A stretch of 64,000 bases of DNA. Source: Candidatus Omnitrophota bacterium (GTDB lineage: Bacteria > Omnitrophota > Gorgyraeia > Gygaellales > Profunditerraquicolaceae). Under the pieces are notes generated by a model. The model saw only the letters and a list, made by a program, of their open reading frames with translations. It was not told where the DNA came from and ran no database searches. Positions 5,452 to 55,631 of this stretch are shown in pieces; the first letter of the stretch is position 1, and every line of letters begins with the position of its first letter. Where the stretch lies: positions 474,509 through 538,508 of the forward strand of contig JALOQK010000002.1 in assembly GCA_025453395.1 (NCBI GenBank). The letters are read 5' to 3'. The translations under genes and the position numbers were made by a program.

Positions 5452-5469
5452 TTTTATTTCGCCTTTTGC

Positions 5470-8456: not shown

Positions 8457-8488
8457 ATTATATCAGATATCATACTTTTCTGAATCAA
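8457..8488 (-). promoter_or_regulatory. Candidate internal sigma70-like promoter with extended -10 (TTGATT-17-TGATATAAT) upstream of the GT9 gene
   Basis: Minus-strand reading gives TGATATAAT, overlapping the TGA stop of the upstream gene, with TTGATT 17 nt upstream. AAGGAG Shine-Dalgarno and ATG follow about 25 nt downstream. Confidence 0.3.
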
Positions 8489-8972: not shown

Positions 8973-8976
8973 TTTC

Positions 8977-9474
8977 TTAACCCTTTCCCTGTTCTAAACC
9001 TAAAATAACTCGCAAGGCAACAAAAAAGCTCAAAAAGACCCTGCCCCGCAAAGTAATATTTATTTTACCATGGCAAGTTCTTAAAAAACCTTCTTGCACT
9101 AAATCGTCAAAGCGTTCTTGCAATAAATCTTTGGTGTTAAAGTATTTTTTTAGCTCTTGCGCCGAACATCCAGAATAAGAAAATTTACTGATTATCAAGA
9201 TCAATTTAAGCGTCGGAGATACAGCTTGAGCTGCCGGGTAGAAAAGCACGTAGGAAAAAGAAAACGAATATGCCAGAGCTAAAGATAACCAGAAATCCCG
9301 TAAAGGGAAAAACTGCATAAGACAGGTAAGCCCCAAAAGCGGAAAGACTAAAAACAAAGATACAAGCGCCTGAATCTGGGCTTTGGGCCGTTTTATCCTC
9401 CACCAGATTACATGCGCAAGCAAGCTAATCAAGAAACAAAATACGCCCGAAATTAAAACATCCAATGTGATCAT
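8977..9474 (-). CDS. Small integral membrane protein (about 3-4 TM plus a soluble C-terminal domain), function unknown
   Basis: Start re-assigned to the internal ATG at 9474, which forms an ATGA overlap with the stop of the upstream gene (9471-9473). The track ORF extends to 9531 inside the upstream CDS. Confidence 0.4.
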   Translation of the reverse strand: MITLDVLISGVFCFLISLLAHVIWWRIKRPKAQIQALVSLFLVFPLLGLTCLMQFFPLRDFWLSLALAYSFSFSYVLFYPAAQAVSPTLKLILIISKFSYSGCSAQELKKYFNTKDLLQERFDDLVQEGFLRTCHGKINITLRGRVFLSFFVALRVILGLEQGKG

Positions 9475-10796: not shown

Positions 10797-12000
10797 CTTT
10801 ATTTTGGTTCAGCCTCTGGATTAAATCATCCGCCCCCTGCGAACAAAAATAAACAAGGACAAAGATTACAAATGGCTGGAAGATTTCCATATTACGGGCG
10901 TAAATAAGAAATGGCAGCAATAGATACTTTACCCACCCTAAATACTGCTGCAAATTAATCGACACAAGCACCAAGGCCATGAGCACAAAAATGAAATTAA
11001 ATCTAAATTTATGCCTTGAAGAAACCATCCCCCATACCGACAACAACAATGGAATAATACCGATATAAAAAGCGCACTCGGAGAAATATTGCTTGCAGTT
11101 TAGGCTGTTCCAGAATTTAGCGGCTACCCCCGGGAAAAATAGCCCCAGATAATCCGCCGGCATAATTGGAACAGAAGTCCCCTGGTACATCTGGCGCATG
11201 ATTGCGATATTTTTATCTTTCTCAATAAAAACAGCAAGAGTATGCAAAAATAGGCCTGAAATCACCAAGACGCCAATAAGAAATATTCTTCTATTCTTTC
11301 TATCCTTTATTAGGCTAAGCAAGTAGGCTTTTCTATTAAACAAAAGGCTTAAAAAGAAAAATTGCATAAAAGTTAACACATAGGCGCCCTGATAGCTGTT
11401 AAGCGATAGCCCTAAGAAAAAACAAAAACCAACCATATTATATATGTTAAATTTATCCTCCAATAAACGCATAAGAAACCACATGCCCCAAGCTGTCCAG
11501 GCAAAAGTAACAAAAACGCCCGACTGCCTAAAGCTTACAAAGGTAAAAGTAGAGAAAATAAAAACAAAAAAAGCAAAAAGCCCAGACAGCGTATACTTAC
11601 TTACTTTGCGCATAGCAAAATAAACCCCAAGGGCATAGAGAAATATCTTTGTAAGAAAATCAAGATGATACAGGGAAAAAAGCGAAAGATTAAAAAACTT
11701 GAAAATAAAAACAAGCGGGAAAGTAGTTATTTCCAAAAGGCGCAAGATCCCGATATTATAATAAAATGGCCCTCCGCAGTAATTATAAATATCCCAATAA
11801 GGAAAAACCCCGTTCATTAGGCAATTATAGAAATAATGCGCGCCTCCAAATTGCCACATTGTGTCATGCGAAAAGGTGCGCTTGAAACAGACAAAAACAA
11901 TCAATACAAAAATAAAATACAGAAAGCAAATGCAGCCCAAAAGCAACAATTCCTGTCTGTTTATCTTGGCCTTATTGAGAGAAAAAACATCCATCACCAA
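10789..12000 (-). CDS. Polytopic membrane protein, probable N-terminal half of a YfhO-like GT-C glycosyltransferase
   Basis: About 11 predicted TM helices. The conserved-looking N-terminal loop FSHDTMWQFGGAHYF...GVFPYWD resembles the D..FH / P.W region of YfhO (recalled from memory). Taken with 9471-10796 it reconstitutes a full-length (~840 aa) YfhO-like architecture. Confidence 0.45.
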   Translation of the reverse strand: MVMDVFSLNKAKINRQELLLLGCICFLYFIFVLIVFVCFKRTFSHDTMWQFGGAHYFYNCLMNGVFPYWDIYNYCGGPFYYNIGILRLLEITTFPLVFIFKFFNLSLFSLYHLDFLTKIFLYALGVYFAMRKVSKYTLSGLFAFFVFIFSTFTFVSFRQSGVFVTFAWTAWGMWFLMRLLEDKFNIYNMVGFCFFLGLSLNSYQGAYVLTFMQFFFLSLLFNRKAYLLSLIKDRKNRRIFLIGVLVISGLFLHTLAVFIEKDKNIAIMRQMYQGTSVPIMPADYLGLFFPGVAAKFWNSLNCKQYFSECAFYIGIIPLLLSVWGMVSSRHKFRFNFIFVLMALVLVSINLQQYLGWVKYLLLPFLIYARNMEIFQPFVIFVLVYFCSQGADDLIQRLNQNKDA

Positions 12001-12006
12001 AACCTC

Positions 12007-13779
12007 TTATCCTCTGGTTATGCGCCTGAAGATATAAAAATCTCCAAAATTCTTTTCCAAAATAAAATATTTTCCTATTAAATTGAAGATTTCCTCATCT
12101 GCGATTATCTTAGAAGAAATCTTGTCAGCCACAAAATATTCTACTGGCGATTGCGACAAGAAAACGAGAAGCAACATTCTGTCTGAAGCCTGAAAGATCT
12201 TTTCGGGAGGAATATTTTGGGCGATTTTAATGCCTTTACGGTAAACAAGATAATATTCTATATCCTGGCGTAATACTGTAACTGAACCATCTTGAATTCT
12301 TGAAGAAAGATATTCCACGGTCTTGCCAAGGCCTTTCTCGCCATAATTAAGCCATATCTCAAAAGTAAGGTAATCCGCCTTAGCCTGATTCAAAGAAAGA
12401 GCAATGTTTATTGGAAAAATCAATAAAACAGATGTTAAGGCAAAACCAGGCATCCAATCTTTGATTTTTAAGAAAAGGCTTATTAGGATAAAGGCAAACC
12501 CTAGAGGCAGATAGTAATACCATAAAAAGTGCCCGTTAAGGTATTTATAAAGCGGCCCCCAAAGCCCGAGAAGATAATCTCCCAGCGTATAGTAATGAGC
12601 AGTAAAAATTATGAGAACCAAACTTAAAACACAAGCCTGCAAAGCCGAAACAGTAAAAGCCTTTCCGGTTGCTTCTTCTTTTTTCTCTATCGCCCATATT
12701 GCTGTCCAGGCAACAAGGATAAGCAAGAGGTTATACGCCGGATAATGGTATTTGAGCATATCAATCGTGGGCCGAAAAAGCTGGAATGGAACCCACATGG
12801 ATAAAGCGCAAACAAAAATAAAATCCACTGTTTCAGCCTTTCGCGTTAAGAAAAAGTTTTTCACGCGGGTATAAACAAAAATTGCTCCGGCTGTAAAAAA
12901 CGCAGCTGAAACCCAATAGATATGCCAACGCAGACCATAAAAGAATCTCTCCCATAATTGAGAAAAATAATTTGGCGTAAATGCCTGCTTGCTTTTGTTA
13001 ATAAGCGTAAATTTTATAAACCCTAAAACATCTGTTCCAGTAAAGAAACAGTATAGCCACCACCCAAGCCAGAAAATAATAAAACCCGTTATGCCCACTA
13101 ACAATAAATCCAATAACATCTTCTTAAATTCGCAGGATAAAATACGGTAAACAATGATCCCGCATAAAAGAAAGCTGGGAGCCAATTCTTTTGACCACAG
13201 GCACAAAGAAAATAAAACCGCCAGCTTCAAACGGCTTTTTATGCCGCTTTTCTTATCCAAATCCCCCTTCATTTCAAAATCTATGAAAAAATACAGAAAA
13301 AGAAGAATCGTAGAAGCTAGTATGTTGTTATCGGCATTGATAACCACAGAATGCTGGACTAATAAGGGATTAACAAGGTATAGGCCCGTTAAGATTGCCA
13401 AGCCTGTTCTTTGCAGGTATTTTTTCTTGTCAGAAAGAAGCTTAAATAGTATTAGCGCTGATAAAAATAGCGACAGGAGAAAATGGAAAACTCCATACAG
13501 GCGCAAAGGCAGCTCTGCGGGGCCAAAGACCTTTTGGACAAGGGCATGGGTAAAAGTGTATAGAAGCGGATGCGTCACCGGCATGTTGCCTTCGGCCACA
13601 GGAAGGAATGTTTTAGGGCCAATGCGGCTGAATTTAAGGCCCATAGTGGCTTCTTCAGCTTCATCCAGATGAAAAGGCTGGCGCACAGCGTTACGGAAGG
13701 CTAAGTACGAGGAAACAATAATAATCCCTGCCGCTAAAACAAAACACGCTCGTTTAATGAAAAGATTAATCGCGGGCAT
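12007..13779 (-). CDS. GT-C fold glycosyltransferase, ArnT/PMT-like (GT83/GT39-type)
   Basis: 590 aa, more than 10 TM helices. The first extracytoplasmic loop after TM1 carries PFHLDEAEEATMG, a DE-containing motif like the catalytic loop-1 DE(xRYAE) of ArnT/PMT family enzymes. Confidence 0.6.
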   Translation of the reverse strand: MPAINLFIKRACFVLAAGIIIVSSYLAFRNAVRQPFHLDEAEEATMGLKFSRIGPKTFLPVAEGNMPVTHPLLYTFTHALVQKVFGPAELPLRLYGVFHFLLSLFLSALILFKLLSDKKKYLQRTGLAILTGLYLVNPLLVQHSVVINADNNILASTILLFLYFFIDFEMKGDLDKKSGIKSRLKLAVLFSLCLWSKELAPSFLLCGIIVYRILSCEFKKMLLDLLLVGITGFIIFWLGWWLYCFFTGTDVLGFIKFTLINKSKQAFTPNYFSQLWERFFYGLRWHIYWVSAAFFTAGAIFVYTRVKNFFLTRKAETVDFIFVCALSMWVPFQLFRPTIDMLKYHYPAYNLLLILVAWTAIWAIEKKEEATGKAFTVSALQACVLSLVLIIFTAHYYTLGDYLLGLWGPLYKYLNGHFLWYYYLPLGFAFILISLFLKIKDWMPGFALTSVLLIFPINIALSLNQAKADYLTFEIWLNYGEKGLGKTVEYLSSRIQDGSVTVLRQDIEYYLVYRKGIKIAQNIPPEKIFQASDRMLLLVFLSQSPVEYFVADKISSKIIADEEIFNLIGKYFILEKNFGDFYIFRRITRG

Positions 13780-13791
13780 AAGCTTTAAGGC

Positions 13792-14247
13792 CTACTTTAT
13801 CAAACGATATGCCTTAAGCCTGTCTAAAACCGCCAGGCGATATGTTTCTATGGCAGCGTTGTCTGTTTGCTTCTTAGCCATATCCACAATACGTAAAGCA
13901 AAATAAATCGGGATAGGCATATTTTCCGCAATCTGATAGAATCTATTCACGTAAACCGAATACTCGCTAAAAGAAGCATTATTCCCCAATATCGGCGAAC
14001 CTGTTAAAGCGCTGGCCTCTGCGACTTCTTTCAAGAGAATCTCTCTAATAATTTCCCTGCGCGAATCATCTATTTTATAATTATCGATTGCTCGCCAATC
14101 AAAACCATCAGAAAACTTAAATTCCGGAGTGTATGCGATGTTCTGTGATTTCTTACCCAAAGAAGCAAGAATAATGGCTATAAATATAATTAACACTATC
14201 CCCACGGAAGAAATAATAACCGTCTTCTTATCAAGCGCCTTATCCAT
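13792..14247 (-). CDS. Small membrane-anchored protein, paralog of 14266-14706
   Basis: N-terminal TM anchor (VIISSVGIVLIIFIAIILASL) then a soluble domain. The block ...GSPILGNNASFSEYSVYVNRFYQIAENMPIPIYFALRIVDMAKK...DNAAIETYRLAVLDRL aligns with ...GAPVLALNPNATDFLMAYNTFIYNFPEIVDIYYS...PLFYALHVAEIVKNGG.DTDIQGYYKMITDKL of the neighbouring gene. Confidence 0.45.
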   Translation of the reverse strand: MDKALDKKTVIISSVGIVLIIFIAIILASLGKKSQNIAYTPEFKFSDGFDWRAIDNYKIDDSRREIIREILLKEVAEASALTGSPILGNNASFSEYSVYVNRFYQIAENMPIPIYFALRIVDMAKKQTDNAAIETYRLAVLDRLKAYRLIK

Positions 14248-15744: not shown

Positions 15745-16848
15745 TTACGTATGAGCAAGCTGCTCTTGGCCCATAAAATGCCAAGGCTGAAGAATAAGTT
15801 CCCCGGAAGATTCTTTGATGCCGCGGTCACCATAATAAGAAGCGTAATTCTTCCAGATCCCCCCGCAAATAAAACCATACCGGCATCTCTTACACTGCGG
15901 GAACTTATGTTTATGCAGAAAACTATGCGCCTGCAGTATCGCAGCAGATTTAAAATGTTCCATGCCCCAGGAAAGCCATTTTTCTTTCTCTGGCAGCAAC
16001 ATCATGCCTAGGCCTACTGCCCCAACCCATTTTAGCCGGTTTTCCCTGATAAAGGAACGCAAATAATAATTCCATTCATCGTGATCATAATGCACCTGAT
16101 GCACATTCTGCACGTGTTTTTCATAACCGGCCATCTGACAAAAAGGGATATAGCGAAAGGTAAGTTTATTAAAAAACGGCCCAAAATCATCCGCGATTCT
16201 TTTAAGCTTATCGGAAACATCCGCATAGCAGATAAAATTCTTCTTATCTGAAAACTTAGCCTGTTCAATAGGGTTAAAAAGTATAAAATTAACTATTTTT
16301 ACCCCCAAGTCCTTAAATAGCTTTGCCCGCTGATATACATCAGAAAAATTCTCTCCGTTAACCACAGAATTACAGCGCACTTTTACCGATAAACCTAAAA
16401 GATTTTCTATGGCTTTGTTTAAAAGTTTATAGCTTCCGGGCATACCGGTGACCTTATCATGAACATCGCTGGTAGAGCCATGCAGAGAAAAAAGAAAATC
16501 CTCCACCTTATTCTCAACTAAGCGTCGAGCAAAAGACCTATCTGACAGCAATATCCCGTTTGTTATCAAAGATATTTTCTTAAAACCTTTATCTCTTGCG
16601 AAAGATACAAGCTCTAGAAAATCCTTGCGGATAGTAGGCTCTCCTCCGGTAAACTCTAAAACCTGCATCTTCTTGGCGGCATAGTAAGAAATAAGATTTT
16701 TGCATCGCAGGGTAGACAAATCTTTATTTTTATTCTTAGACTTCACATCATTAAGATAATAACAAAATGAGCACTTAAGATTGCAAGAATAACCGGTGTT
16801 TATATCTATCCTTTTGGTAAGCTTAGGCGGCGGCAGTTGATTTTTCAT
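15745..16848 (-). CDS. Radical SAM enzyme with a Cys-rich C-terminal SPASM/twitch-like region
   Basis: TGYSCNLKCSFCYY (CX3CX2C), TGGEP and C-terminal CQMAGYEK...CKRCRYGFICGG. Confidence 0.75.
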   Translation of the reverse strand: MKNQLPPPKLTKRIDINTGYSCNLKCSFCYYLNDVKSKNKNKDLSTLRCKNLISYYAAKKMQVLEFTGGEPTIRKDFLELVSFARDKGFKKISLITNGILLSDRSFARRLVENKVEDFLFSLHGSTSDVHDKVTGMPGSYKLLNKAIENLLGLSVKVRCNSVVNGENFSDVYQRAKLFKDLGVKIVNFILFNPIEQAKFSDKKNFICYADVSDKLKRIADDFGPFFNKLTFRYIPFCQMAGYEKHVQNVHQVHYDHDEWNYYLRSFIRENRLKWVGAVGLGMMLLPEKEKWLSWGMEHFKSAAILQAHSFLHKHKFPQCKRCRYGFICGGIWKNYASYYGDRGIKESSGELILQPWHFMGQEQLAHT

Positions 16849-17203: not shown

Positions 17204-17928
17204 ACCTTATAGCTCCTTTTCTTAAGAAGACATAGAATAACCGCTAATGTTACCTTAAACATGTAATAACCGGATTTCAAAAACCTTATTGAAGAAACGC
17301 CTGACTGACGCGGATGCATTCTAACTGGAACTTCTTTTATCTTGGCATTATAGCAACGGGCGATAACTATTCCTTCGGGCTCCGGAAAATCAATCGGGTA
17401 ACAGCAAGAAAACAAGGCGATCAACTTTTTTCCTGTGGCGCGAAAACCCGATGTCGGATCAGTGGTTTTCTGTCCGGTCAACAAGCTTATCAAGCAAGAA
17501 AAAAACTTAATGCCCACTCGCCTTAAGAAAGAAGACTTATAATAGGCGTCTTTTGCCAGAAATCTGCTGCCTACGCAAAGATCTACATTTTCTTTCAGAA
17601 CCGGATCAAGTATGTCCTTTATAAAACTGGCATCGTGCTGGCCATCGGCATCAAATTGCACAACAGCATCATATCCATTAAGATGGGCATACTTAAAGCC
17701 GGTTTGCACTGCCCCGCCTATACCCAAATTAAAAGGAAGCCTTATAACTGAAGCTGCTGTATCTTCAGCTAATTGCGCAGTATTATCAAATGAGCCGTCA
17801 TCTACCACTAAAATATCCACATCAAGCATCGCACTTTTAATGCCGGAAACAACTTTCAGGATGTTTCCTGACTCATTCAAAGCCGGAATAATAACCAAGG
17901 TCTTAACGGCCGCCGCCCCAGGCTGCAT
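17194..17928 (-). CDS. Family 2 glycosyltransferase (polyprenyl-phosphate sugar synthase-like, soluble)
   Basis: LVIIPALNESGNI...VVDDGSFDNTAQLA...QFDADGQHD; GT-A signature like DPM/ArnC-type enzymes but without TM helices. Confidence 0.8.
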   Translation of the reverse strand: MQPGAAAVKTLVIIPALNESGNILKVVSGIKSAMLDVDILVVDDGSFDNTAQLAEDTAASVIRLPFNLGIGGAVQTGFKYAHLNGYDAVVQFDADGQHDASFIKDILDPVLKENVDLCVGSRFLAKDAYYKSSFLRRVGIKFFSCLISLLTGQKTTDPTSGFRATGKKLIALFSCCYPIDFPEPEGIVIARCYNAKIKEVPVRMHPRQSGVSSIRFLKSGYYMFKVTLAVILCLLKKRSYKVCK

Positions 17929-19148
17929 TATGCGCCTCCAACCAGAGCCTGTGTTGCCTGCTCTATAAGGCCTGTATCCGGTGCAGCCATATCGGGTTTT
18001 AAGCCATCAAAATCAATGGGGTTACCGTTGAAAAGATACCCCTTGCCTACGGTTAACTCAATAACCGCGCCATCGGGAAGGTCAAACAAACTCTTTAAGA
18101 AAACCTGTCCCGCGGTATTATCCCCCAATACCTTTGCCTTATTATAAGCCTGCATAAAACCCGCGAAGATCTCGGCGGCGCTTCCGGTGCCCTTATTAGT
18201 TAAAATTATAACCTGTCCGTTAAATTTTACTTTTGACTCTGGCGTGATCAATCCTGACGGCGCCTGGTTTCTTCTTAAATAATAAAAAAGCTTATCCTGC
18301 GCATTAAGGAAAATACCGGATATATCCCAGGCCGCCAAAGGCGGGCCTCCGCCATTATTACGCAAGTCAATAATAAGCTTATTTACAGACTGGCTGTTTA
18401 AAGACTGCACCGCCTCGCGCATCTCATTGCCGGTTTGCTCATTGAAAAATCTAATCTGCAGACAAACAACCTGCGGATTTGAGGTTGGAACAAAAAATAC
18501 CGACTGCTTAAAATACTGGGTACTAACCAATATTACCGTATAGGTACTTGCCTTAATAGGCGAAAAAATCTCCAAATTTAACTCTTTGCCTAAAGCAAGA
18601 GAAAATAACTTGCTTACATCCTGTTCAGGGATCTCAGAAACCGGTTTACCGTCTATCTTTACAACTTCATCGTTTACCTGAACGCCTTTTACCTTGGCAT
18701 CAGAACGCGGCTCTACCTGGGTTATAACAAAACGGCCATCCTTAACATGCCCTTCAAGGCCGACATCACCGGCTGAACCTAATAGCGAATCCTTAAATTG
18801 TTTGGCAATATTAGGCGGGACAAAAGTAGTAAAACTATCCTTGGGATCTTTTAGGCGTGAAATCAATATTCCGGTTGCCACATGCTTAATGGCATCATCA
18901 ACTTTGGTTTTATCTTTTACCTGCGGAATAAAAATTCTTTCTTTGAATTCTTTTACATACTGTTCGAAATTTGCTGGGTTTACTTCAAGATAGTAATTCT
19001 GCTGCATAATATCATAGGCGGCTTTCAAGTATTTTATATACTGATTGTATGTGTCTTCCACTTTTCTTTTTTGGATCATCTTATTAATCGTATAGCCTGC
19101 GATTGCTAAAGACATTAACAAGACCCCTAAAGCTATTAATTTATTCAT
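17928..19148 (-). CDS. S41 family C-terminal processing peptidase (Ctp-like) with a PDZ domain
   Basis: N-terminal signal/anchor, a PDZ-like segment (GVQVNDEVVKIDGKPV), then IIDLRNNGGGPP and GTGSAAEIFAGFMQ matching S41 catalytic-region motifs. Confidence 0.8.
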   Translation of the reverse strand: MNKLIALGVLLMSLAIAGYTINKMIQKRKVEDTYNQYIKYLKAAYDIMQQNYYLEVNPANFEQYVKEFKERIFIPQVKDKTKVDDAIKHVATGILISRLKDPKDSFTTFVPPNIAKQFKDSLLGSAGDVGLEGHVKDGRFVITQVEPRSDAKVKGVQVNDEVVKIDGKPVSEIPEQDVSKLFSLALGKELNLEIFSPIKASTYTVILVSTQYFKQSVFFVPTSNPQVVCLQIRFFNEQTGNEMREAVQSLNSQSVNKLIIDLRNNGGGPPLAAWDISGIFLNAQDKLFYYLRRNQAPSGLITPESKVKFNGQVIILTNKGTGSAAEIFAGFMQAYNKAKVLGDNTAGQVFLKSLFDLPDGAVIELTVGKGYLFNGNPIDFDGLKPDMAAPDTGLIEQATQALVGGA

Positions 19149-20476
19149 TCTCTCCCCTTGGTTTGTGCAATGAAATCAATAAAACAGCGCTTAATATAAT
19201 CCAGCATTTTCTCATTTATCCCGGGATACACGCCTATCCAAAACAAATTATTCATTGCTATATCCGTATTCTCAAGATTCCCCGCCAGTCTATGTTTAAT
19301 ATTCTGGTAAGCTGGTTGGCGCAGGATATTCCCGCAAAAAAGCATCCGCGTAGAAATAAGCCTGTCTTCCAAGAACTTTACCATTGCATCACGATTAAAA
19401 CCTGCCTCTTGCCTTACTAACAGAGGAAAACCAAACCAACTCGGCAAAGAACAGGCCTGTGCCTTAGGCAAAATAAAACAATCTTCGTATTTCTTAAAAA
19501 ACGCGAACAACCGATTAAAATTATTCCTGCGCCTAATAATAAAATCATTCAACTTCTCAAGCTGCGCCAAGCCCACAGCCGCCTGCATGTCAGTAATTTT
19601 CATATTGTACCCGATATGTGAATATATATACTTGTGATCATAGCCAAAAGGCAGCCTGCCCATCTTAAGAGAAAACCTTTTTTTACAAGTGCCATCTTTA
19701 CCGGTATCGCACCAACAGTCCCTTCCCCAATCGCGCAAAGATAATAATGCCTTTTTTAATACAGGGTTGTTTGTAATAACAGCCCCTCCTTCTCCGGTAG
19801 TAATCTGATGAGAAGGATAAAAACTAAAAGTAGCTATATCAGAAAACGATCCGGTCATTTTATTATTATACTTTGAACCTAAAGCATCGCAAGAATCTTC
19901 GACAAACCATAAGTTATATTTATTCGCTATCCTTTTGACTTCTTTAATATTAAAAGGATTGCCCAAGGTATGCGCTAAAAAGATCGCCTTGGTCTTAGGG
20001 GAAATTGCCCTTTCAATTTTGGCCCAATCAATATTATATGTGCCTAATTCTATATCCACAAAAACCGGGACAAGATTATTTTGTATAATAGCGTTTACAG
20101 TTGTGGGAAAACAGCAGGCAGTTGTTATAACTTCATCGCCTCTATTAAGCCTGCGCTTACCCAACAGAAAAGATGTTAACGCGCTAATTGCCAAAAGATT
20201 TGCTGAAGAACCGGAATTTACCAGCATACAATTATCCGCCCCGATGAACCGAGAAAATTTGCGCTCAAATGCTTCGGCGTATCTGCCTGCAGTAAGCCAG
20301 AAATCCAAAGAGGAATCAACTAAATTGATAAGCTCTTTTTCATCATAAACCCTTTTCCCGTAAGGGACCCTGGTTTTCCCAGGGACAAATTCTTCACTCT
20401 TTAGATTTCTAAAGTAGAAATCTTTTACCGCGGATAAGACATTCTTTCTTGATTTGCTATTATTCCCGCGCATCAT
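19145..20476 (-). CDS. rfbH: CDP-6-deoxy-D-xylo-4-hexulose-3-dehydrase (E1; DdhC/RfbH), PMP-dependent DegT-family enzyme
   Basis: Start re-assigned to ATG at 20476 (MMRGNN...; GGAAGGGAA Shine-Dalgarno 8 nt upstream). The track's TTG-initiated 48-aa extension overlaps the upstream CDS. Long collinear matches to my recollection of Yersinia RfbH (recalled from memory, unverified): VPYGKRVYDEKELINLVDSSLDFWLTAGRY..SGSSANLLAISALTS and FRDWGRDCWCDTGKDGTCKKRF..LPFGYDHKYIYSHIGYNMKITDMQAAVGLAQLEKL. The CxC...C [2Fe-2S]-type motif is consistent with E1. Confidence 0.85.
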   Translation of the reverse strand: MMRGNNSKSRKNVLSAVKDFYFRNLKSEEFVPGKTRVPYGKRVYDEKELINLVDSSLDFWLTAGRYAEAFERKFSRFIGADNCMLVNSGSSANLLAISALTSFLLGKRRLNRGDEVITTACCFPTTVNAIIQNNLVPVFVDIELGTYNIDWAKIERAISPKTKAIFLAHTLGNPFNIKEVKRIANKYNLWFVEDSCDALGSKYNNKMTGSFSDIATFSFYPSHQITTGEGGAVITNNPVLKKALLSLRDWGRDCWCDTGKDGTCKKRFSLKMGRLPFGYDHKYIYSHIGYNMKITDMQAAVGLAQLEKLNDFIIRRRNNFNRLFAFFKKYEDCFILPKAQACSLPSWFGFPLLVRQEAGFNRDAMVKFLEDRLISTRMLFCGNILRQPAYQNIKHRLAGNLENTDIAMNNLFWIGVYPGINEKMLDYIKRCFIDFIAQTKGRE

Positions 20477-22262
20477 AGATATTCCCTTCCAGCTCTTTTT
20501 TTGATAAAAATGGCGCCATGTTTTCCAAAGAAGAGGAAACGATGCTTCCGTCGCTGTTCTTGACGGAAGAAACCTTTGGGGCAAAAGGCTGTTTGTCTGA
20601 AACCGCCACTTCGCACACAAACGCTTTCTTAGAGGATAAAATATCCTTTATCTTGCGCGCCATATCCTTATGGCTATTAATACGCTCAGTAGCTAAGCCA
20701 TACGCCTTGGCCACCTTTAGAATATCAGGACAAGATACCCCGCTTTCCTTGCTTGAACCTACATAACGGCTGTTAAAAAAATTATCTTGCGTCTGGCGTA
20801 TGGAAATATAGCCATTGTTATTTAAAACAAAAACCTTGACTGGCAATTTATAATGGACTAAAGTTTGCAATTCTTGGATGTTCATCTGCAGGCTTCCGTC
20901 TCCCGCTAAACATACAACCGGAGTTTTCCCTAAGGAAATACTCGCCCCAATACTGGCTGGTAAATCATAGCCCATAGAAGCGCATCCGGAATTCGAAACA
21001 AACCTTTGTTTGCCGCTTACTATTCCGGCCTGATAGCAAACAACCGAAGCAGTGCCGTTACCCGTAACCAGAACATCATTGTTGCCTAGATTCGCCGTCA
21101 AATCCTGAATAAAGCAATATGGGTTTACCGGTTTATCTTTACAGCGATAGTCCTTCATAACTACAGGATACATCTTCCGCCTGTCTTTAGCCCAAGACAG
21201 CCAAGATGACCAATCCGGCAATAAAACTTTGGAAATCTGCTTTTTTAATTCCACCAGAAAACATCCCGCGTCGGCGCAAATTGTTAAATCCGCTTTAACT
21301 GTGGGCTTTTTTAATTCTGCGCTATCTATATCGACAAAGATTTTCTTTGACCTCTTGGCAAAACATCCCCAGTTATAGCCTGTCTGACGAATATTATTGC
21401 GCGTTCCGACAGAAATCAAAAGATCCGCATTTTGCAAAACAAAATTACCGAATCTGGTCCCGATAGTGCCGGGCCTGCCGGCATAAAAGGCATTTTTTTC
21501 TGGCAACAGATCAACTGCGCAAAGGCTTGTTAAAACTGGAATTCTTAATTTGTTAATGACACTGTTAAAAATTCCCCGAGAACCGCTTATTTTAATCCCT
21601 TGTCCGGCCAATATAACAGGGGATTTTGCAGCCATTAGCATCTCTACAAGCTTAGCTACCTGTTTTTTTAACAAAGAACCGGAAGTTTTCTTGGGCGGCT
21701 TAAAACTTTTTAACTTATCTGTATCGATTAATGCGGACTGCACATCAAGAGGTATATCCAGCCACACCGGTCCCGGACGTGCTTCTTGCGCTAAATACAA
21801 TGCCTTTTGCAAATGATAACGTATGCTATGGGGGTCTTTTATTAAAAACGCGTATTTAGTTATCGGCTTTACTATATCGATAATATTTATTTCCTGATCT
21901 CCCAGCTGACGCAACTTCAATTCGGGGCAAGAGGCTATTGTGGTAGAAAACTTGACCTGCCCGGATATATAAACACAACTTACAGAGTCTAACCACTGCC
22001 CAATTACCCCGGTAATAGTATTTGTCCCACCTGGTCCGCTAGTCACCAATACTAAAGGCATTTTACCGGAAGCTCGCTTATATCCTTCAGCGGCCATGCT
22101 AGCTGCCTGCTCATGGTGGAAACAATAATATTTAAGCTTATGATTTCTTCCCACAGAATCCACAAGATGCATTGCCCCGCCGCCGGAAACCATAAAAACA
22201 TCTTTTATCCGTTTACTGGATAAATAATCAAAAATATAGTCGCTTAATTTTACTTTGGGCAT
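20460..22262 (-). CDS. Acetolactate-synthase-like ThDP-dependent enzyme (YerE-type candidate for attaching a two-carbon branch to a keto-sugar)
   Basis: 600 aa. N-terminal pyrimidine domain VFMVSGGGAMHLVDS and C-terminal ThDP motif GDGSLQMNIQELQTLVHYKLPVKVFVLNNNGY. It lies immediately upstream of rfbH. Confidence 0.75.
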   Translation of the reverse strand: MPKVKLSDYIFDYLSSKRIKDVFMVSGGGAMHLVDSVGRNHKLKYYCFHHEQAASMAAEGYKRASGKMPLVLVTSGPGGTNTITGVIGQWLDSVSCVYISGQVKFSTTIASCPELKLRQLGDQEINIIDIVKPITKYAFLIKDPHSIRYHLQKALYLAQEARPGPVWLDIPLDVQSALIDTDKLKSFKPPKKTSGSLLKKQVAKLVEMLMAAKSPVILAGQGIKISGSRGIFNSVINKLRIPVLTSLCAVDLLPEKNAFYAGRPGTIGTRFGNFVLQNADLLISVGTRNNIRQTGYNWGCFAKRSKKIFVDIDSAELKKPTVKADLTICADAGCFLVELKKQISKVLLPDWSSWLSWAKDRRKMYPVVMKDYRCKDKPVNPYCFIQDLTANLGNNDVLVTGNGTASVVCYQAGIVSGKQRFVSNSGCASMGYDLPASIGASISLGKTPVVCLAGDGSLQMNIQELQTLVHYKLPVKVFVLNNNGYISIRQTQDNFFNSRYVGSSKESGVSCPDILKVAKAYGLATERINSHKDMARKIKDILSSKKAFVCEVAVSDKQPFAPKVSSVKNSDGSIVSSSLENMAPFLSKKELEGNIYDARE

Positions 22263-22265
22263 AAA

Positions 22266-23198
22266 TTAAAAGTTTATTTTTTCCCTTATGATCACAAAAG
22301 GCTTCTTACGCACCTGCGAATGAATCGCCCCCACATATTCCCCAATAACCCCTAGGAAAAATAACTGTACCCCAGAGACAATAAGCACAAATAACAATAG
22401 CCCCGCCACCGCCGGTATCTGTACCGGCCAAAAGAAAACTTTTAGGACAAGGTATACTATCGCGAAAAGAAAACTAAACACTGCCATAAGAAAACCTATG
22501 TAAGTGCAAAACCTAATCGGCAGGATAGAGTAACTAACCAGTCCATTAATAGCAAAATCGATCAGATAAAATAAATTACTCTTGGATTTTCCTTTTAATC
22601 TGGCTTTTCGTTTATAACTTATGCCTTTTTGCTTAAATCCTATAGAAGCAATAAGCCCCCTGATATAAGGCTTATAATCGTCCAGCTTAACTAATTCATT
22701 AACCACCTTGCGGTCAATAAGCCGGTAGGTTCCGACATTAACCTGTAATTTCTCCTCAGAAATGGCATTAATTCCGATATAAAAAATCTTACGCAACAAC
22801 CCCATAATCAAATTATCGCTTGTCTTGTTGCGCACGCCGTAAACAACCTGATACCCCTGTTCCCACTGGCGTATAAACTCCGGAATTAGTTCTGCCGGGT
22901 CCTTTAAACTTCCCTCAAAGGTAATAACCGCATCCCCTGTTGCGTGGCGGTAACCGGTCATCTCTGATTTAATCGAACCAAAATTCTTAGAGTAGCTTAA
23001 AACCTTTACATTTTTGTCGTTTGCGGCAATGCCCTTCAAGATTTCAAGCGTCCTGTCTGTGCTAGCGTTATCCAGAAAAATATGCTCATATTCATAATCG
23101 CTGGCCAAATCCTTAAAAATATTCTTTATTTGTTCGTATACATCTCGGACAATCTCTTCTTCATTTAAAACCCCGGTTATAACGCTTATCTTTTTCAT
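22266..23198 (-). CDS. Family 2 glycosyltransferase, GtrB/ArnC/DPM1-like polyprenyl-phosphate glycosyltransferase with 2 C-terminal TM helices
   Basis: ISVITGVLNEEE...FLDNASTDRT...VVYGVRNK and two C-terminal hydrophobic helices. Confidence 0.75.
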   Translation of the reverse strand: MKKISVITGVLNEEEIVRDVYEQIKNIFKDLASDYEYEHIFLDNASTDRTLEILKGIAANDKNVKVLSYSKNFGSIKSEMTGYRHATGDAVITFEGSLKDPAELIPEFIRQWEQGYQVVYGVRNKTSDNLIMGLLRKIFYIGINAISEEKLQVNVGTYRLIDRKVVNELVKLDDYKPYIRGLIASIGFKQKGISYKRKARLKGKSKSNLFYLIDFAINGLVSYSILPIRFCTYIGFLMAVFSFLFAIVYLVLKVFFWPVQIPAVAGLLLFVLIVSGVQLFFLGVIGEYVGAIHSQVRKKPFVIIREKINF

Positions 23199-24403
23199 GC
23201 TATTCTCCCCTTCAGGCGATTTTTAGGCACAGCATAGAGAACAGTTTGGAAACATTCCTGTTCATGGCGCCTTAAGAAAAATAAATAATCACTATTTAAA
23301 GATTTAACCAAAAGCGGAATCTTATATATATCCTCTTGGTTATGGTCCAAGCATACAGCTAAAACAGGGCAAAATCTAGAAATAATGCCCTTAATAGACA
23401 GCAACTGGTTCTTCTCCTGGCCCTCAATATCCATTTTAACATAAGAAGCAGCTACGCCCTCTATTTTTAATAGATCTCTTAAAGACAGACACTTGACTTT
23501 ATTCTTAGATCCTCCCAAAGCTGAAGAAGTTGTCCCAGTGCAATTAAAAGAAAATCTTCCTCTATGTTCACCTAATGCGCAATTATAAAGCGCAATTTTT
23601 TGCTTTAAATCCCCGGATAAAGAACACACATAGGCTTTTAATTTACCAAAACTTATTCTATCCGGCTCTATAGCAATAATCTTATTAAAGCTTTTCCTTC
23701 GCTGCTGCAGAAAATCCCTTATCGTATCCCCATCAAAAGCCCCGCAATCAGCAAATATTTCATTTCCCAAGAAAGATACAATGCTTTTAGAGAAATAAGA
23801 ACTGCCCCTGGGGCTTGTTAATCCTTCAAGCCTAAGATGCAAATGATAATATATCTGCTTTAAGAATTCCCGGCGTGATTGCTCATCAGCCAAAAGATCA
23901 AAACAAGCAAGCACCTCATCTCTATCCTTAATAATCTTTTCCGGCAAATCTACATAATAATACGGTAAAAAGTATTCCGGATGCCTCCAGAATAAACCTA
24001 CCGAATGAACAACGCACTTACACCCTAAAGAAAACAACAACTTTCTTGTGTCAGCAAACTTATGTGAGCCATTAAAAATGGTTACAATAAAAACAGCGTC
24101 TTTACCGTATTTGTCTGCGCACTGCCGCGGTGAAAATACATCTAGGCCGTTTATACGCTTCCCCCAAAGATTAGGGTCTGAATCCGAAAAACAAATAGGT
24201 TTTTCTTTGAGAGTGCGCAAAACACGCGAAACTTTCTTTCCTAAATTACCAGCGCCAAAAAGGACAATCCCCTTTTTGCCTTTGGATAACAAGCTAAATG
24301 CATTCTTTCTGCGCGAAATAACACTTGTTACATCCTCGCCCAATATATCCAAAAGCTCTTTTCTTGGCTGCATTAAGAATCTTTTACCGCGCTTAAATTC
24401 CAC
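23195..24403 (-). CDS. FkbM-family SAM-dependent methyltransferase with an N-terminal Rossmann-like domain
   Basis: C-terminal FADCGAFDGDTIRDF...IIAIEPD...ALGEHRGRFSF matches the Methyltransf_21 (FkbM) pattern. The N-terminal GIVLFGAGNLGKKV...CFSDSDP resembles the NeuD/PglD-type N-terminal domain. Confidence 0.6.
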   Translation of the reverse strand: MEFKRGKRFLMQPRKELLDILGEDVTSVISRRKNAFSLLSKGKKGIVLFGAGNLGKKVSRVLRTLKEKPICFSDSDPNLWGKRINGLDVFSPRQCADKYGKDAVFIVTIFNGSHKFADTRKLLFSLGCKCVVHSVGLFWRHPEYFLPYYYVDLPEKIIKDRDEVLACFDLLADEQSRREFLKQIYYHLHLRLEGLTSPRGSSYFSKSIVSFLGNEIFADCGAFDGDTIRDFLQQRRKSFNKIIAIEPDRISFGKLKAYVCSLSGDLKQKIALYNCALGEHRGRFSFNCTGTTSSALGGSKNKVKCLSLRDLLKIEGVAASYVKMDIEGQEKNQLLSIKGIISRFCPVLAVCLDHNQEDIYKIPLLVKSLNSDYLFFLRRHEQECFQTVLYAVPKNRLKGRIA

Positions 24404-25472
24404 GATTGTAAATAACCTGCTTTAATTCTTCATTATTAGCATAGGGAGAATCAATCATATCAATAGTAATAGGCTGATCTTTCTTGCAAGATTTAAGTAA
24501 AACTTCTCCTGACATAAGCTCGCGGCAAGAGATCTGCGCTTTCTGCAGAGGAATTGCCAGATATATATCCTCTTCGGACAGGGCATGCCCTTCTTTTAAA
24601 TCATGTTTGGCATATACTCCCCGCACCAAGGCATCCAGATACTTAATTTCTTTCTCAGAATGCACCCTGCTTGAGGCCCCACTTCCGCCACAGAGTTCTT
24701 TTGCAGCATGAAAACTCTTAAACCAGGCATCGACATGTTCTGGTAAAGAACAATATTCCGAAACTTCTCTGCCATCATCAATGTCGATATGGCGCTCAAA
24801 AGTACGCGCGCCTTTAGCATAGGCAATTAACATTGAGGCCTCTAAAGTTTTATTGGCTTCATGGGTAGAAAACCCGATTATATGCTTAGGATACCTATTC
24901 TTTAAGAAATCTATCTGATTTAATTCCATTTCTCTGGCCATAGTAGGATAAATAGATACACAATGATTAATTGCCAAAGGAATATTCCTATTCTCAAAGA
25001 AAATTACAAGATCATCCAGGTCCTTAAGGGTAGTCCCGCCAGTTGAAACAAATACGGGTTTGCGTGTTTTTGCAATCTTTTCAATCAAAACCCAATCATT
25101 GATATCTGAGCTGGCTAGCTTTATTATCTGAATGCCTAATTCTATACATAAATCAACTGACGCCTCATCAAAGGGAGTAGCCATAGTAATACAACTTTGT
25201 TTACGTATGGCCTTAACAAGCTCTTCAAAATTTTCTTTGGACATTTGCGTGTCTATGGTCTTTTTAATATAACGGATATCTGTTCTTTTCAGAAAATCTT
25301 TATGGATAAATGAATTAACATTCCTAAACTGCAATTTTATCGCAGCCCTTACGTTATTAAAACGCACTAACCTGCCATAATCAGTAATTATTTTTAAACC
25401 CCGCTCTAAACTACCCCAATGGTTATTGGCGATCTCTAAAACAAATAAATCTTCAAATATGTCCCTATTCAT
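24393..25472 (-). CDS. neuB: N-acetylneuraminate / nonulosonic acid synthase family (NeuB/PseI/LegI-like) with a C-terminal SAF domain
   Basis: FVLEIANNHWGSLERGLKII aligns with the IAEIGCNHNGS motif. TPFDEASVDLCIELGIQIIKLASSDINDWVLIEKIAKTRKPVFVSTGGTTLKDLD aligns with NeuB TPFDEDSIDFL...KIPSGELLNLPYLEKIAKL...IISTGMATIDEI (recalled from memory, unverified). IGFSTHE aligns with IGFSDHS. A C-terminal SAF-like tail is present. Confidence 0.8.
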   Translation of the reverse strand: MNRDIFEDLFVLEIANNHWGSLERGLKIITDYGRLVRFNNVRAAIKLQFRNVNSFIHKDFLKRTDIRYIKKTIDTQMSKENFEELVKAIRKQSCITMATPFDEASVDLCIELGIQIIKLASSDINDWVLIEKIAKTRKPVFVSTGGTTLKDLDDLVIFFENRNIPLAINHCVSIYPTMAREMELNQIDFLKNRYPKHIIGFSTHEANKTLEASMLIAYAKGARTFERHIDIDDGREVSEYCSLPEHVDAWFKSFHAAKELCGGSGASSRVHSEKEIKYLDALVRGVYAKHDLKEGHALSEEDIYLAIPLQKAQISCRELMSGEVLLKSCKKDQPITIDMIDSPYANNEELKQVIYNRGI

Positions 25473-25483
25473 CTAAAACCTCC

Positions 25484-26368
25484 CTATTTATCAAAACATA
25501 AAGCCTTGTTGTTTATATTACAGCAATGGCTCAAATACCAATCATACAACATCGAAATAGCTTTATCTATAGAAGTAAAGCTTATATCTTTTATTTCTTC
25601 AGTGATGCGTTTATTATCCCCGCTATATTCTTTGTCTATTCCAGGCTTTGCTATTTTTATAGGCAGCTTTTTGCCAGACACCCTAATAACTTTCTTAGCC
25701 AGTTCACGCAGCTCTATAGACTTATAAGGCGTAATATTATAGGCCTTATACTTGGCTTTATGATTAATAAAATAATCTAATATCGGCATAAAGTCATCCA
25801 CAAAAATATAGTCAAATTTACGATTTTGCTTAATGGTAACAGCCTTTACGCATACAGCCTTACAAATAGCATTAGAAATAAAGCGTATAGCGTAATCTTC
25901 ATATTTGCCAAATATGCCAAATACGCGCAGCTCCACAGCATTCGTCATCTTCTCGACATATTTAGCAATAATGTATTTGGATAAGCCGCCTTCATCTGTT
26001 GGGATATGCGCGCCAAAATAGTCTTCCTTCATTTTAGGCAAATAATACCTCTGGTCATAAACCAGCCCAGAGCTTAAAACAATTATTTTGCCGTAAGAAT
26101 CCTTGTGGCGCACCAAATTGAAAAACATCCTTGTATTATGATAAAGCTCTCCAGAAGGGTCTTTGGCGTTTCTATGCCCAGGCCTGACCGCGGCATGGAT
26201 TACAGCATCAAAATATTTATGCCTTCTAAAAAACGCGTCAACACTATCCTGGTCCAAAAGGTCTAATTGCGCATGCGTGGGGCAAACAAGCTTATATTTA
26301 GAAGCTAAAAATGATTCTTTTATATTCCTACCGATAAAACCGCTTGCTCCGGTTAAAAAAATCTTCAT
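25484..26368 (-). CDS. NAD-dependent sugar epimerase/dehydratase/reductase (SDR family)
   Basis: N-terminal MKIFLTGASGFIGRNI Rossmann motif; 294 aa. Confidence 0.7.
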   Translation of the reverse strand: MKIFLTGASGFIGRNIKESFLASKYKLVCPTHAQLDLLDQDSVDAFFRRHKYFDAVIHAAVRPGHRNAKDPSGELYHNTRMFFNLVRHKDSYGKIIVLSSGLVYDQRYYLPKMKEDYFGAHIPTDEGGLSKYIIAKYVEKMTNAVELRVFGIFGKYEDYAIRFISNAICKAVCVKAVTIKQNRKFDYIFVDDFMPILDYFINHKAKYKAYNITPYKSIELRELAKKVIRVSGKKLPIKIAKPGIDKEYSGDNKRITEEIKDISFTSIDKAISMLYDWYLSHCCNINNKALCFDK

Positions 26369-27561
26369 GCTTCGGCCGCCTCTTTTTGTTTCTTAACTGA
26401 AGAAACTATGCTTAAAATTAAGAGCGAAACAATAATTATTGGGTTAACAAGCACCGAAAGGCTTAATTCCGGCTCTAAAGCATAACGCCAGTAATTTTTG
26501 GGTATCAATAATAAAGCAAAAAGAATTATAAATGCCCTGTCAAAAAGCTTATTGCCCGGGGCGTTAATAAAGAACAAAAGTGGAATATAGAAATACATAA
26601 GCCGGTAATCCCCGGAAACATACGGGAACAACTCCATACAGCAAACTAACAGTAATATCTTCTTCCAAAATGTTTTCTCAACAATCAAAACATACAAAGC
26701 AATAAACCCAGCGCAGACCAGAGAAAACGCCATATAAGGGCTTACAAAATACGGAAGCTGAAAACGCTTTTGCGCGATAACTAAGATCGTCTTTAAAAAA
26801 CCAAATAAGCTATGCCCAAAATACAAGCCTTCATTACCAATAACATAGGCCTGTTTATAAAGACCAAGATTAAACACGAAACGCTCCCAATTAGCCCCTA
26901 TGGCCCCCTTAAAAGAAGCCAAAGCAACAAAATTAAGCACAAAAACCATCCCTAAAATCAACAAAACCTGCCTGTATTTCTTATCCGAGAGAAAAAGAAG
27001 TATGAATACTGCCGGAAACGGCTTCATGCTTATAGCCAAACCTAACAACACTGCGCTAAACCAAAACTTATTATTAGCATAGGAAGAGATACTAAAGTAA
27101 AGAGCAAATAGGCAAAGTACCTCTATATTAAGTCTATCTACGGACAAAAGAAAAGGATATGATAAAAAACAGATTACAAACATGTTCATAAAATCACTTG
27201 CCTTCTCCCCCATTTTAATGTTCTTGTGCACAATATAAGCAAAAATGGCCAAGAAAGAAAACAAAAATATAAGAAATGAGAAGAACGGCTTTAAGATTAT
27301 AAATATATACTCTATGGCAAAAAGGAACGGTAGCATGGTTTGAGTGCTCGTGGGCGGCATTCCAAGATATGGATTATAATCCGCCATGGAAAAAAACATG
27401 CTGGTGAAATCACTAAAGCAATCCCGGGGACGGAAAAGAAAAGTATTCACCGGATATCCATTGCCCAGATAGGTGCCAAAGAAATAATGATAGAAAACAG
27501 CGATAGAAAAACCCAACAATACTATTAAAGAAAGTAAACTTATCTTCTCTTTTTTGTTCAT
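26365..27561 (-). CDS. Polytopic membrane protein (about 10 TM), putative membrane glycosyltransferase / glycan polymerase
   Basis: 398 aa, highly hydrophobic with aromatic-rich loops. Its placement among GT and sugar genes suggests a Wzy-like or GT-C-like role; no diagnostic motif recognised. Confidence 0.35.
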   Translation of the reverse strand: MNKKEKISLLSLIVLLGFSIAVFYHYFFGTYLGNGYPVNTFLFRPRDCFSDFTSMFFSMADYNPYLGMPPTSTQTMLPFLFAIEYIFIILKPFFSFLIFLFSFLAIFAYIVHKNIKMGEKASDFMNMFVICFLSYPFLLSVDRLNIEVLCLFALYFSISSYANNKFWFSAVLLGLAISMKPFPAVFILLFLSDKKYRQVLLILGMVFVLNFVALASFKGAIGANWERFVFNLGLYKQAYVIGNEGLYFGHSLFGFLKTILVIAQKRFQLPYFVSPYMAFSLVCAGFIALYVLIVEKTFWKKILLLVCCMELFPYVSGDYRLMYFYIPLLFFINAPGNKLFDRAFIILFALLLIPKNYWRYALEPELSLSVLVNPIIIVSLLILSIVSSVKKQKEAAEA

Positions 27562-36167: not shown

Positions 36168-36170
36168 AAA

Positions 36171-41303: not shown

Positions 41304-41309
41304 ATAATC

Positions 41310-43548: not shown

Positions 43549-43549
43549 A

Positions 43550-47368: not shown

Positions 47369-47423
47369 TTTATTCTCCTTCAATAGGCTCGTAAGTTATA
47401 GATTTGACTACAGATAGACCTTT

Positions 47424-50587: not shown

Positions 50588-50590
50588 ATT

Positions 50591-52021: not shown

Positions 52022-52023
52022 AA

Positions 52024-54412: not shown

Positions 54413-54424
54413 AGGGTAATAGGG

Positions 54425-55630: not shown

Positions 55631-55631
55631 A

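Follow-up and report, generated by a model that had tools for sequence, protein, structure and literature searches.

A YerE-like carboligase and a NeuB-like synthase in a 47 kb glycan operon of Candidatus Omnitrophica: a probable route to a carbon-branched surface sugar

Introduction

Does a glycan operon of an uncultured bacterium encode a carbon-branched dideoxy sugar, and if so, from which donor would the branch be made? The question is raised by a 64,000-nt stretch of a Candidatus Omnitrophica genome (assembly GCA_025453395.1, contig JALOQK010000002.1, positions 474,509 to 538,508; hereafter the window), in which genes for the CDP-3,6-dideoxyhexose pathway (rfbF, an rfbG-like gene and rfbH) share one operon with a gene for a 600-aa thiamine diphosphate (ThDP)-dependent enzyme. 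An initial annotation of the window had likened this enzyme to YerE of the yersiniose pathway. Yersiniose, erwiniose and caryophyllose belong to the carbon-branched higher sugars, a rare group of surface determinants with immunological importance, and YerE-like ThDP enzymes are sought as biocatalysts for chiral tertiary alcohols.

The characterized pathways are those of yersiniose (YerE/YerF), erwiniose (ErwE/F/I/J), caryophyllose (MMAR_2331-2333) and gastriose (MyGE) (PMC9306805, PMC12247030). In the published scheme, CDP-4-keto-3,6-dideoxyglucose, the product of rfbF, rfbG and rfbH, is branched by a YerE-like enzyme using either pyruvate or an aldolase-made 4-hydroxy-2-oxo acid as the donor, and a YerF-like reductase follows (PMC9306805). 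Here we propose, with a probability of about 0.55, that the genes of the window form a route to a 3,6-dideoxyhexose that is activated by CDP and bears an acyl branch at C4; the donor for this branch would come from a NeuB-like synthase. The operon probably yields a carbon-branched surface sugar. Claims that go beyond the assignment of a family are drawn from homology and gene neighbourhood.

Results and Discussion

Identity of RfbH and of the ThDP enzyme

Positions are numbered over the whole window and related loci carry labels such as L012. Every open reading frame (ORF) of at least 150 aa was searched with Pfam, and the relatives of four proteins (the ThDP enzyme, the RfbG-like protein, the NeuB-like protein and SDR294, an extended short-chain dehydrogenase/reductase of 294 aa) were ranked among the solved structures in the PDB. 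About 46 genes form one co-directional minus-strand array running from 47383 down to 232, with most neighbours overlapping or abutting, and this array is one 47 kb glycan operon. All four genes named by the initial annotation were present on the minus strand, and the matches of the core genes were full-length, with E-values down to 1e-204, far beyond chance. As that annotation had it, rfbF and the gene resembling a CDP-glucose 4,6-dehydratase open the operon, rfbF being the first gene. The rfbH gene had been placed 25 kb downstream in the same direction; we measured 25.1 kb from the rfbG-like gene, within the same array and with almost no intergenic gaps. The ThDP gene does lie directly before rfbH, and its 3' end overlaps the rfbH start by 17 nt. 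The local order of the genes is SDR294, NeuB-like, FkbM, GT2, ThDP enzyme and rfbH.

The rfbH ORF spans 19145-20620, and its first ATG at 20476 gives a protein of 443 aa. RfbH scored 679 bits against the NCBIfam model NF011936 (cutoff 423) and aligned end to end with the E1 dehydrase of Yersinia pseudotuberculosis (PDB 3bcx) at 516 bits, so that the homology to RfbH/DdhC claimed initially was borne out by both profile and structure. A His in place of Lys, together with the [2Fe-2S] cysteines, sets E1 and SpnQ apart from aminotransferases and ColD (PMC8987622). The window protein has His at the position of His220 (FSFYPSHQ opposite VSFYPAHH of 3bcx), and the equivalents of the cluster ligands Cys193, 251, 253 and 261 are all kept, with EDSC opposite EDCC and DCWCDTGKDGTC opposite DCYCAPGCDNTC. 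The His and the four cysteines exclude the reading of RfbH as an aminotransferase; the best matches were E1 dehydrases and not 4-aminotransferases with an active-site Lys. Judged by these residues, RfbH is a true E1 dehydrase, an orthologue of E1 in the E1/E3 pairs of Y. pseudotuberculosis (DdhC/DdhD, AscC/AscD), with which it shares the His220 equivalent and the four cluster cysteines.

The 600-aa protein has the three domains TPP_enzyme_N, M and C. In the family alignment its residues E51, G454-D455-G456 and N482 do not vary; they correspond to the catalytic Glu and the GDG...N motif for ThDP. Its best NCBIfam match was the acetohydroxyacid synthase (AHAS) model TIGR00118, and the annotation given to its relatives by the Joint Genome Institute is acetolactate synthase; both would fit a biosynthetic large subunit (IlvB) that had come to lie in a glycan operon by chance. 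We regard this as extremely improbable. The score against TIGR00118 was 380 bits at a cutoff of 538, and the protein stayed below every AHAS cutoff in NCBIfam, its other scores being lower still. Among solved structures, the nearest was JanthE (8rph; 390 bits over residues 3-592), followed by PpYerE (5ahk; 265 bits), whereas AHAS structures reached at most 235 bits. Pfam and NCBIfam scans of the window ORFs detected no ACT/ilvN, ilvC or ilvD, and there is no space for ilvN, as the ThDP gene is flanked by GT2 and rfbH. Moreover, conservation of its setting beside rfbH and aldolase genes extends over more than 10 phyla. The model cutoffs, the structure ranking, the lack of ilvN and the gene context together exclude an AHAS, and by homology the protein is YerE-like. 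The YerE-like character proposed in the initial annotation is thus retained, with JanthE and PpYerE as the nearest solved relatives and with neither a grouping with IlvB nor an ilvN nearby. A 2025 review lists both enzymes among the YerE-like carboligases that accept ketones (PMC12247030). JanthE, from Janthinobacterium sp. HH01, binds flavin adenine dinucleotide as well as ThDP; it differs from the window protein in having an unusual CDG ThDP motif instead of the canonical GDG.

A conserved cassette in other genomes

We scanned genomes, one per species, with the ThDP enzyme as the seed and searched the 80 best loci with the proteins of the window. Co-occurrence counts here and below refer to the 80 best-scoring loci of each scan (genomes or metagenomes), which are not a random sample; 47 of the genome loci extended 6 kb or more to either side of the ThDP gene and are called full loci. 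The enzyme has thousands of relatives at 50-61% identity, and at least 542 species genomes carry one. They occur in Omnitrophota, Elusimicrobiota, Margulisbacteria, delta-proteobacteria, Nitrospirota, Bacteroidota, Spirochaetota, groups of the candidate phyla radiation and a Paenibacillus.

The gene tables of six relatives gave the usual order as rfbF, rfbG, rfbH, extended SDR, ThDP enzyme, HpcH/HpaI aldolase, adh_short, DHQS-like and a GT2 of ~310 aa, with or without GtrA, although not all cassette genes were found in every related locus (Table 1). In the full loci, the commonest direct upstream neighbour of the ThDP gene was SDR294 (22/47) and the commonest downstream neighbour was HpcH (29/47). 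Of the genes of the related cassettes, HpcH aldolase, adh_short, DHQS-like, HAD and GtrA had no homologues in the window itself. The coupling of RfbF, RfbG and RfbH to the ThDP enzyme, which the initial annotation had drawn from this one locus, recurred in other genomes, where rfbF/G/H stood beside relatives of the ThDP gene in 46 of the 80. The recurrent cassette fits the published scheme for acyl-branched sugars.

One may also divide the operon into two separate halves, in which RfbF, RfbG and RfbH would make an unbranched 3,6-dideoxyhexose with SDR294 as the 4-reductase, similar to abequose or paratose synthases, and the ThDP enzyme would branch another keto sugar, for example one derived from GDP-heptose. 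This division seems unlikely to us. RfbH was absent within 10 kb of the ThDP gene in 13 of the 47 full loci, but it was found in the other 34, and in the window the two genes overlap. SDR294 has the size of CDP-abequose and CDP-paratose synthases, which are extended SDRs too, yet it is the gene most often found directly upstream of the ThDP gene. The operon also holds a heptose pathway and a second ThDP system; nevertheless, the characterized YerE-like enzymes of surface glycans all act on CDP-4-keto-3,6-dideoxyglucose (PMC12247030, PMC9306805).

Table 1. Features of the window and number of related genome loci (of the 80 best) in which the protein was found.
Feature	Position	Strand	Model, domain or structure	Related loci (of 80)
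rfbF, glucose-1-phosphate cytidylyltransferase	46598-47383 (TTG ORF; probable ATG 47368)	minus	TIGR02623	46
Short-type CDP-glucose 4,6-dehydratase-like SDR in the RfbG position, 327 aa	45612-46595	minus	TIGR02622 (best model); PDB 1rkx	50 (RfbG)
rfbH/ddhC (E1), pyridoxamine phosphate- and [2Fe-2S]-dependent CDP-4-keto-6-deoxyglucose 3-dehydrase	19145-20476	minus	NF011936; 3bcx	46
YerE-like ThDP-dependent carboligase, 600 aa	20460-22262	minus	TPP_enzyme_N, M, C
NeuB-like phosphoenolpyruvate-dependent synthase (3g8r/SpsE-like subfamily), proposed maker of the 2-oxo acid donor	24393-25472	minus	Pfam NeuB	14
HpcH aldolase				54
SDR294, extended SDR, candidate YerF-like reductase of the branch carbonyl, 294 aa	25484-26368	minus	Pfam Epimerase, RmlD_sub_bind	50
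FkbM-family methyltransferase	23195-24403	minus	TIGR01444
GT2-310, ArnC/PgfS-like polyprenyl-phosphate glycosyltransferase, 310 aa	22266-23198	minus	Pfam Glycos_transf_2	50
GT87-family GT-C membrane glycosyltransferase, candidate user of the lipid-linked sugar	26365-27561	minus	Pfam GT87	10
MBL-fold hydrolase, recurrent accessory gene	44872-45615	minus	Pfam Lactamase_B_2	12
DUF362-4Fe4S protein	29576-30676	minus	Pfam
STT3-family oligosaccharyltransferase, 837 aa	47515-50028	plus
Type II secretion and type IV pilus-like genes	50033-57791
Nucleotide-activated heptose block	40320-44875	minus
GT9 heptosyltransferase-like gene	7499-8425
Ten radical-SAM genes	31730-37673, 38519-39562, 30673-31728, 15745-16848, 6432-7496, 2516-3637, 232-1095	minus
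Pyruvate-dehydrogenase E1 alpha/beta pair	4399-6429	minus
S41 C-terminal processing peptidase with PDZ	17928-19148	minus
Run of five ORFs (151-590 aa)	8463-14247	minus

A NeuB-like synthase in place of the aldolase

The window holds a NeuB-like protein where most related cassettes have an aldolase. It scored 202 bits against 3g8r, an SpsE-like structure, and only ~80 bits against true NeuB or PseI; the NCBIfam scores were below the cutoffs for both TIGR03569 (123 bits; cutoff 400) and TIGR03586 (111 bits; cutoff 340). It has the TIM-barrel NeuB domain in common with the NeuB, PseI and LegI synthases and with SpsE-like 3g8r, and it keeps the equivalents of NmNeuB E25, K53, K129, H215, E234 and H236, residues which we take to serve in metal binding, phosphoenolpyruvate (PEP) binding and catalysis. 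R314 of NmNeuB, which presumably contacts N-acetylmannosamine, is not kept. The protein thus differs from the NeuB, PseI and LegI synthases in scoring far below their cutoffs, in having no Arg314 equivalent and in being linked to YerE-like enzymes. Pfam scans found no other nonulosonic-acid genes (NeuA, PseB/C types) in the window.

Among the 47 full loci, 38 had HpcH only and nine had the NeuB-like protein only, while none had both and none had neither (Fisher p = 7e-10, a value that overstates the significance, since related genomes are not independent). With the NeuB-like protein as the query, a reciprocal scan of metagenomes gave 80 loci at 67-73% identity. The ThDP enzyme was present in 17 of the 18 loci flanked by 5 kb or more on each side, and relaxing the flanks to 3 kb or more gave 25 of 28; HpcH was present in 0 of the 80. 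One of these relatives, L088, has exactly the gene order of the window. Of the 80 species genomes, at least 14 carried the NeuB-like arm, with Bacteroidota, Nitrospirota, Elusimicrobiota, Spirochaetota and Omnitrophota among the phyla represented, and 515 metagenome stretches carried it as well. The cassette is widespread in uncultured phyla in two mutually exclusive forms, one with the aldolase and one with the NeuB-like synthase.

In a neighbour-joining tree, NeuB-linked and HpcH-linked ThDP enzymes were interleaved, L029_N being for example the sister of L020_H. The NeuB-linked enzymes did not form a separate clade, and the type of donor is not readable from the phylogeny of the ThDP enzyme. 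The interleaving indicates that aldolase and NeuB-like synthase were exchanged many times without a change of the ThDP lineage and, therefore, that the donor is probably chemically similar when the aldolase type changes; on this argument the NeuB-like protein and HpcH would probably supply similar donors. For ErwE, MMAR_2332 and MyGE the donor is a 4-hydroxy-2-oxo acid made by an aldolase, and pyruvate is not accepted by ErwE (PMC9306805). Because the distribution of the two proteins is strictly complementary, we infer that the NeuB-like protein makes a 4-hydroxy-2-oxo acid from PEP and an aldehyde (possibly phosphorylated in most relatives); pyruvate aldolases form products of this class, too.

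The branch itself is probably longer and hydroxylated, as an aldolase or a NeuB-like synthase goes with this ThDP family in every case. The analogy to yersiniose drawn by the initial annotation therefore has to be divided: a YerE-like enzyme does occur with a dideoxy sugar pathway, whereas the C2 branch is not what the aldolase or NeuB-like gene in 47/47 full loci suggests. A yersiniose-type route would have the ThDP enzyme use pyruvate, with the C2 acetyl branch reduced to hydroxyethyl and the NeuB-like protein serving some other sugar. Pyruvate-dependent C2 branching is exactly what YpYerE does (PMC12247030, PMC9306805), and the window has no HpcH aldolase. Such a route is possible, though we hold it to be considerably less probable than the one proposed here: besides the association in all full loci, the NeuB-like subfamily stands beside the ThDP gene in nearly all well-flanked metagenome loci, the window lacks detectable NeuA and PseB/C-type genes for a nonulosonic acid, and ErwE, which does not take pyruvate, is the best-studied of the aldolase-linked enzymes.

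Our more specific proposal is that NeuB-like synthases have repeatedly replaced a class II pyruvate aldolase as the source of the 2-oxo acid donor of YerE-like enzymes. Long-chain C-branched 3,6-dideoxy higher sugars would then be made by a route not yet described, and in this Omnitrophica bacterium the sugar would be delivered via undecaprenyl phosphate to a surface or protein-linked glycan beside STT3. We put this forward tentatively, as somewhat less likely than not. In the literature searched, which included neither Krug et al. 2024 nor a 2024 paper on JanthE, we found no paper naming YerE together with NeuB. From the two forms of the cassette we predict that YerE-like enzymes have a new class of donors derived from PEP, and we predict a function for the 3g8r/SpsE-like branch of NeuB proteins.

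RfbF and the RfbG-like dehydratase

RfbF scored 386 bits against TIGR02623, above the cutoff of 300, and was 59-62% identical to the rfbF products of related loci. The initial annotation of rfbF stands, whereas RfbG holds only as "RfbG-like". The 327-aa SDR that follows rfbF directly had TIGR02622 as its best model, with 214 bits at a cutoff of 278, and its best PDB match was the CDP-glucose 4,6-dehydratase 1rkx at 139 bits, nearly tied with dTDP-glucose dehydratases at 136-137 bits. Its motifs are kept, with SSDK and YDVSK opposite TSDK and YSNSK of 1rkx. Asp-Lys is typical of CDP-glucose dehydratases and Asp-Glu of the dTDP enzymes. The short type also follows rfbF in L006, L008, L015, L023, L033 and L057 at 51-57% identity, while most related loci have a canonical RfbG of 360-380 aa instead. 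From its motifs and position, the 327-aa SDR is a probable CDP-glucose 4,6-dehydratase.

The MBL-fold hydrolase (RNase Z/phosphodiesterase-like) lies directly after the short RfbG in Omnitrophota loci. Its orthologues had 46-54% identity and occurred in L023, L033, L057 and nine other loci; the order in L057 is rfbF, short SDR, MBL.

Electron supply to RfbH

No obvious E3 (DdhD/AscD-like) had been seen in the initial annotation, and our searches agreed with it: the window ORFs of at least 150 aa gave no Fer2, FAD_binding_6 or NAD_binding_1 protein in Pfam scans, and tblastn of the window with the E3-like protein of L012 gave no match. Clustering of neighbourhood ORFs revealed a 240-aa NAD_binding_1 (FNR-like) protein beside rfbH in 11 of the 80 related loci (e.g. 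L012:8180-8899). It has no Fer2 domain and is shorter than the classical E3/AscD, which has about 330 aa. This protein was missing from 35 of the 46 RfbH-containing loci, and the absence of a linked E3 is therefore the rule in such cassettes. In this respect the window resembles SpnQ, which works with general ferredoxin or flavodoxin reductases in place of E3 (PMC8987622), and is unlike the E1/E3 systems of Yersinia. On the evidence of the cassette, E1-type 3-dehydrases are predicted to function commonly with no E3 of their own.

The DUF362-4Fe4S protein of the operon had been suggested as a substitute that would feed electrons to the [2Fe-2S] cluster of E1. It is an iron-sulfur protein within the same operon, and E1-type enzymes such as SpnQ can use ferredoxin systems that are not dedicated to them (PMC8987622), but the suggestion found no support from co-occurrence: the protein accompanied RfbH or the ThDP enzyme in 0/80 genome and 0/80 metagenome loci (0/160). 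Its gene ends a run of six radical-SAM genes, which need a reductant themselves, and the linked reductase of related loci, where there is one, is the FNR-like protein. We consider the DUF362 protein a quite improbable E3. An amine-oxidase-like flavoprotein, also taken up as a candidate, co-occurred in 1/80 loci and was dropped for want of support.

Proposed pathway

The steps that we propose are as follows. RfbF, by its family, makes CDP-glucose, which the short SDR following it would dehydrate to CDP-4-keto-6-deoxyglucose, as its position and motifs suggest. RfbH, which has the diagnostic residues, would then remove the 3-hydroxyl with pyridoxamine phosphate and its [2Fe-2S] cluster, presumably with electrons from a reductase encoded outside the window. 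From its homology to JanthE and YerE and its linkage, the ThDP enzyme is predicted to decarboxylate a 2-oxo acid and add the acyl anion to the C4 ketone. The donor would most likely be a 4-hydroxy-2-oxo acid, formed by the NeuB-like synthase in place of HpcH/HpaI. SDR294 would then reduce the branch carbonyl as YerF does, and FkbM may methylate the sugar. Finally, the ArnC-like GT2 would transfer the product to undecaprenyl phosphate, and a GT-C enzyme such as GT87 would use it at the outer face of the membrane, as is known of these families.

Several points weigh against this pathway. The 25 kb separating rfbF and the rfbG-like gene from rfbH are occupied by a GDP-heptose pathway and ten radical-SAM genes, and other keto-sugar acceptors for the ThDP enzyme are therefore conceivable. 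The RfbG-like SDR is under its model cutoff and almost as close to dTDP-glucose dehydratases. JanthE, the closest characterized relative of the ThDP enzyme and also the closest with a solved structure, accepts pyruvate among other donors, so that a C2 branch is possible. The role of SDR294 as the branch reductase is drawn only from its position; no solved relative was found for it at E <=1e-10. Lastly, the window has no HAD phosphatase, a gene that occurs together with the NeuB-like one in 9 of 14 loci from genomes and 11 of 18 from metagenomes.

By analogy, the proposed system works like the erwiniose and caryophyllose pathways. With these and with the yersiniose and gastriose pathways it shares the genes rfbF, rfbG and rfbH, which provide the CDP-4-keto-3,6-dideoxyglucose acceptor, a three-domain ThDP enzyme that resembles AHAS but has no small subunit, an SDR beside the ThDP gene and, in the cassette, a C-C bond-forming enzyme able to make a 4-hydroxy-2-oxo acid. 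It differs from them in having a NeuB-like PEP-dependent synthase for the aldolase and no linked E3. Its sugar apparently goes to a polyprenyl-phosphate GT2 and a GT-C enzyme, not to a soluble Leloir transferase, and its host is an uncultured Omnitrophica with a 47 kb operon next to an STT3 homologue. The replacement of the aldolase by a NeuB-like protein, the lipid-linked delivery and the breadth in uncultured phyla appear to be new.

Tailoring and transfer of the sugar

FkbM scored 48 bits against TIGR01444 (cutoff 37.7) and was 42% identical to its orthologue in L005/L007. It co-occurred in 5 of the 14 loci with the NeuB-like protein as compared to 2 of the 66 loci without it, and it is a probable O-methyltransferase of the branched sugar.

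GT2-310 scored 229 bits against PgfS and 131 against ArnC in NCBIfam, both below the cutoffs, and has two C-terminal hydrophobic segments within residues 225-290. In relatives it is often followed by GtrA and lies near GT87 or PMT_2 GT-C enzymes. The GT87 protein of the window has six hydrophobic segments, and its orthologues in related loci had 31-35% identity. If the ArnC/ArnT and GtrB/GtrA systems are taken as a guide, undecaprenyl phosphate is the probable acceptor of the branched sugar, and use of the sugar would probably take place outside the cytoplasm.

The STT3-family gene is divergent from rfbF at a distance of 131 bp and is followed by the type II secretion and type IV pilus-like genes. 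These neighbours hint that the glycan of this Omnitrophica bacterium may be protein-linked.

Other genes of the operon

The glycan predicted for Omnitrophica is unusually elaborate. The heptose block comprises a transaldolase/FSA-like protein, a GmhA-like SIS protein, an SDR, a GHMP (HddA-like) kinase and a fused nucleotidyltransferase-GmhB phosphatase, and the GT9 heptosyltransferase-like gene lies further down the operon. The ten radical-SAM genes include four tandem B12-binding paralogues of ~490-500 aa and two rSAM-SPASM proteins; their density is unusually high for a sugar cluster and suggests radical C-methylation or epimerization of sugars.

The pyruvate-dehydrogenase E1 alpha/beta pair has no E2 or E3 component in the window. 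Enzymes of the alpha-keto acid dehydrogenase-2 class add C2 branches to keto sugars of actinomycete antibiotics (PMC12247030), and the pair resembles this class; by that analogy the operon could contain in this pair another system for branching sugars. A split transketolase occurs in a similar setting in the related locus L003.

The S41 peptidase gene lies between rfbH and a PpgS-like GT2/DUF2304 pair, a position at which it was found in 0 of the 80 related loci. The run of five ORFs gave either no Pfam or NCBIfam match or a weak match to the YfhO C-terminus. Their products have from one (151 aa) to seven (590 aa) predicted hydrophobic segments and are candidate polymerase, flippase or GT-C components.

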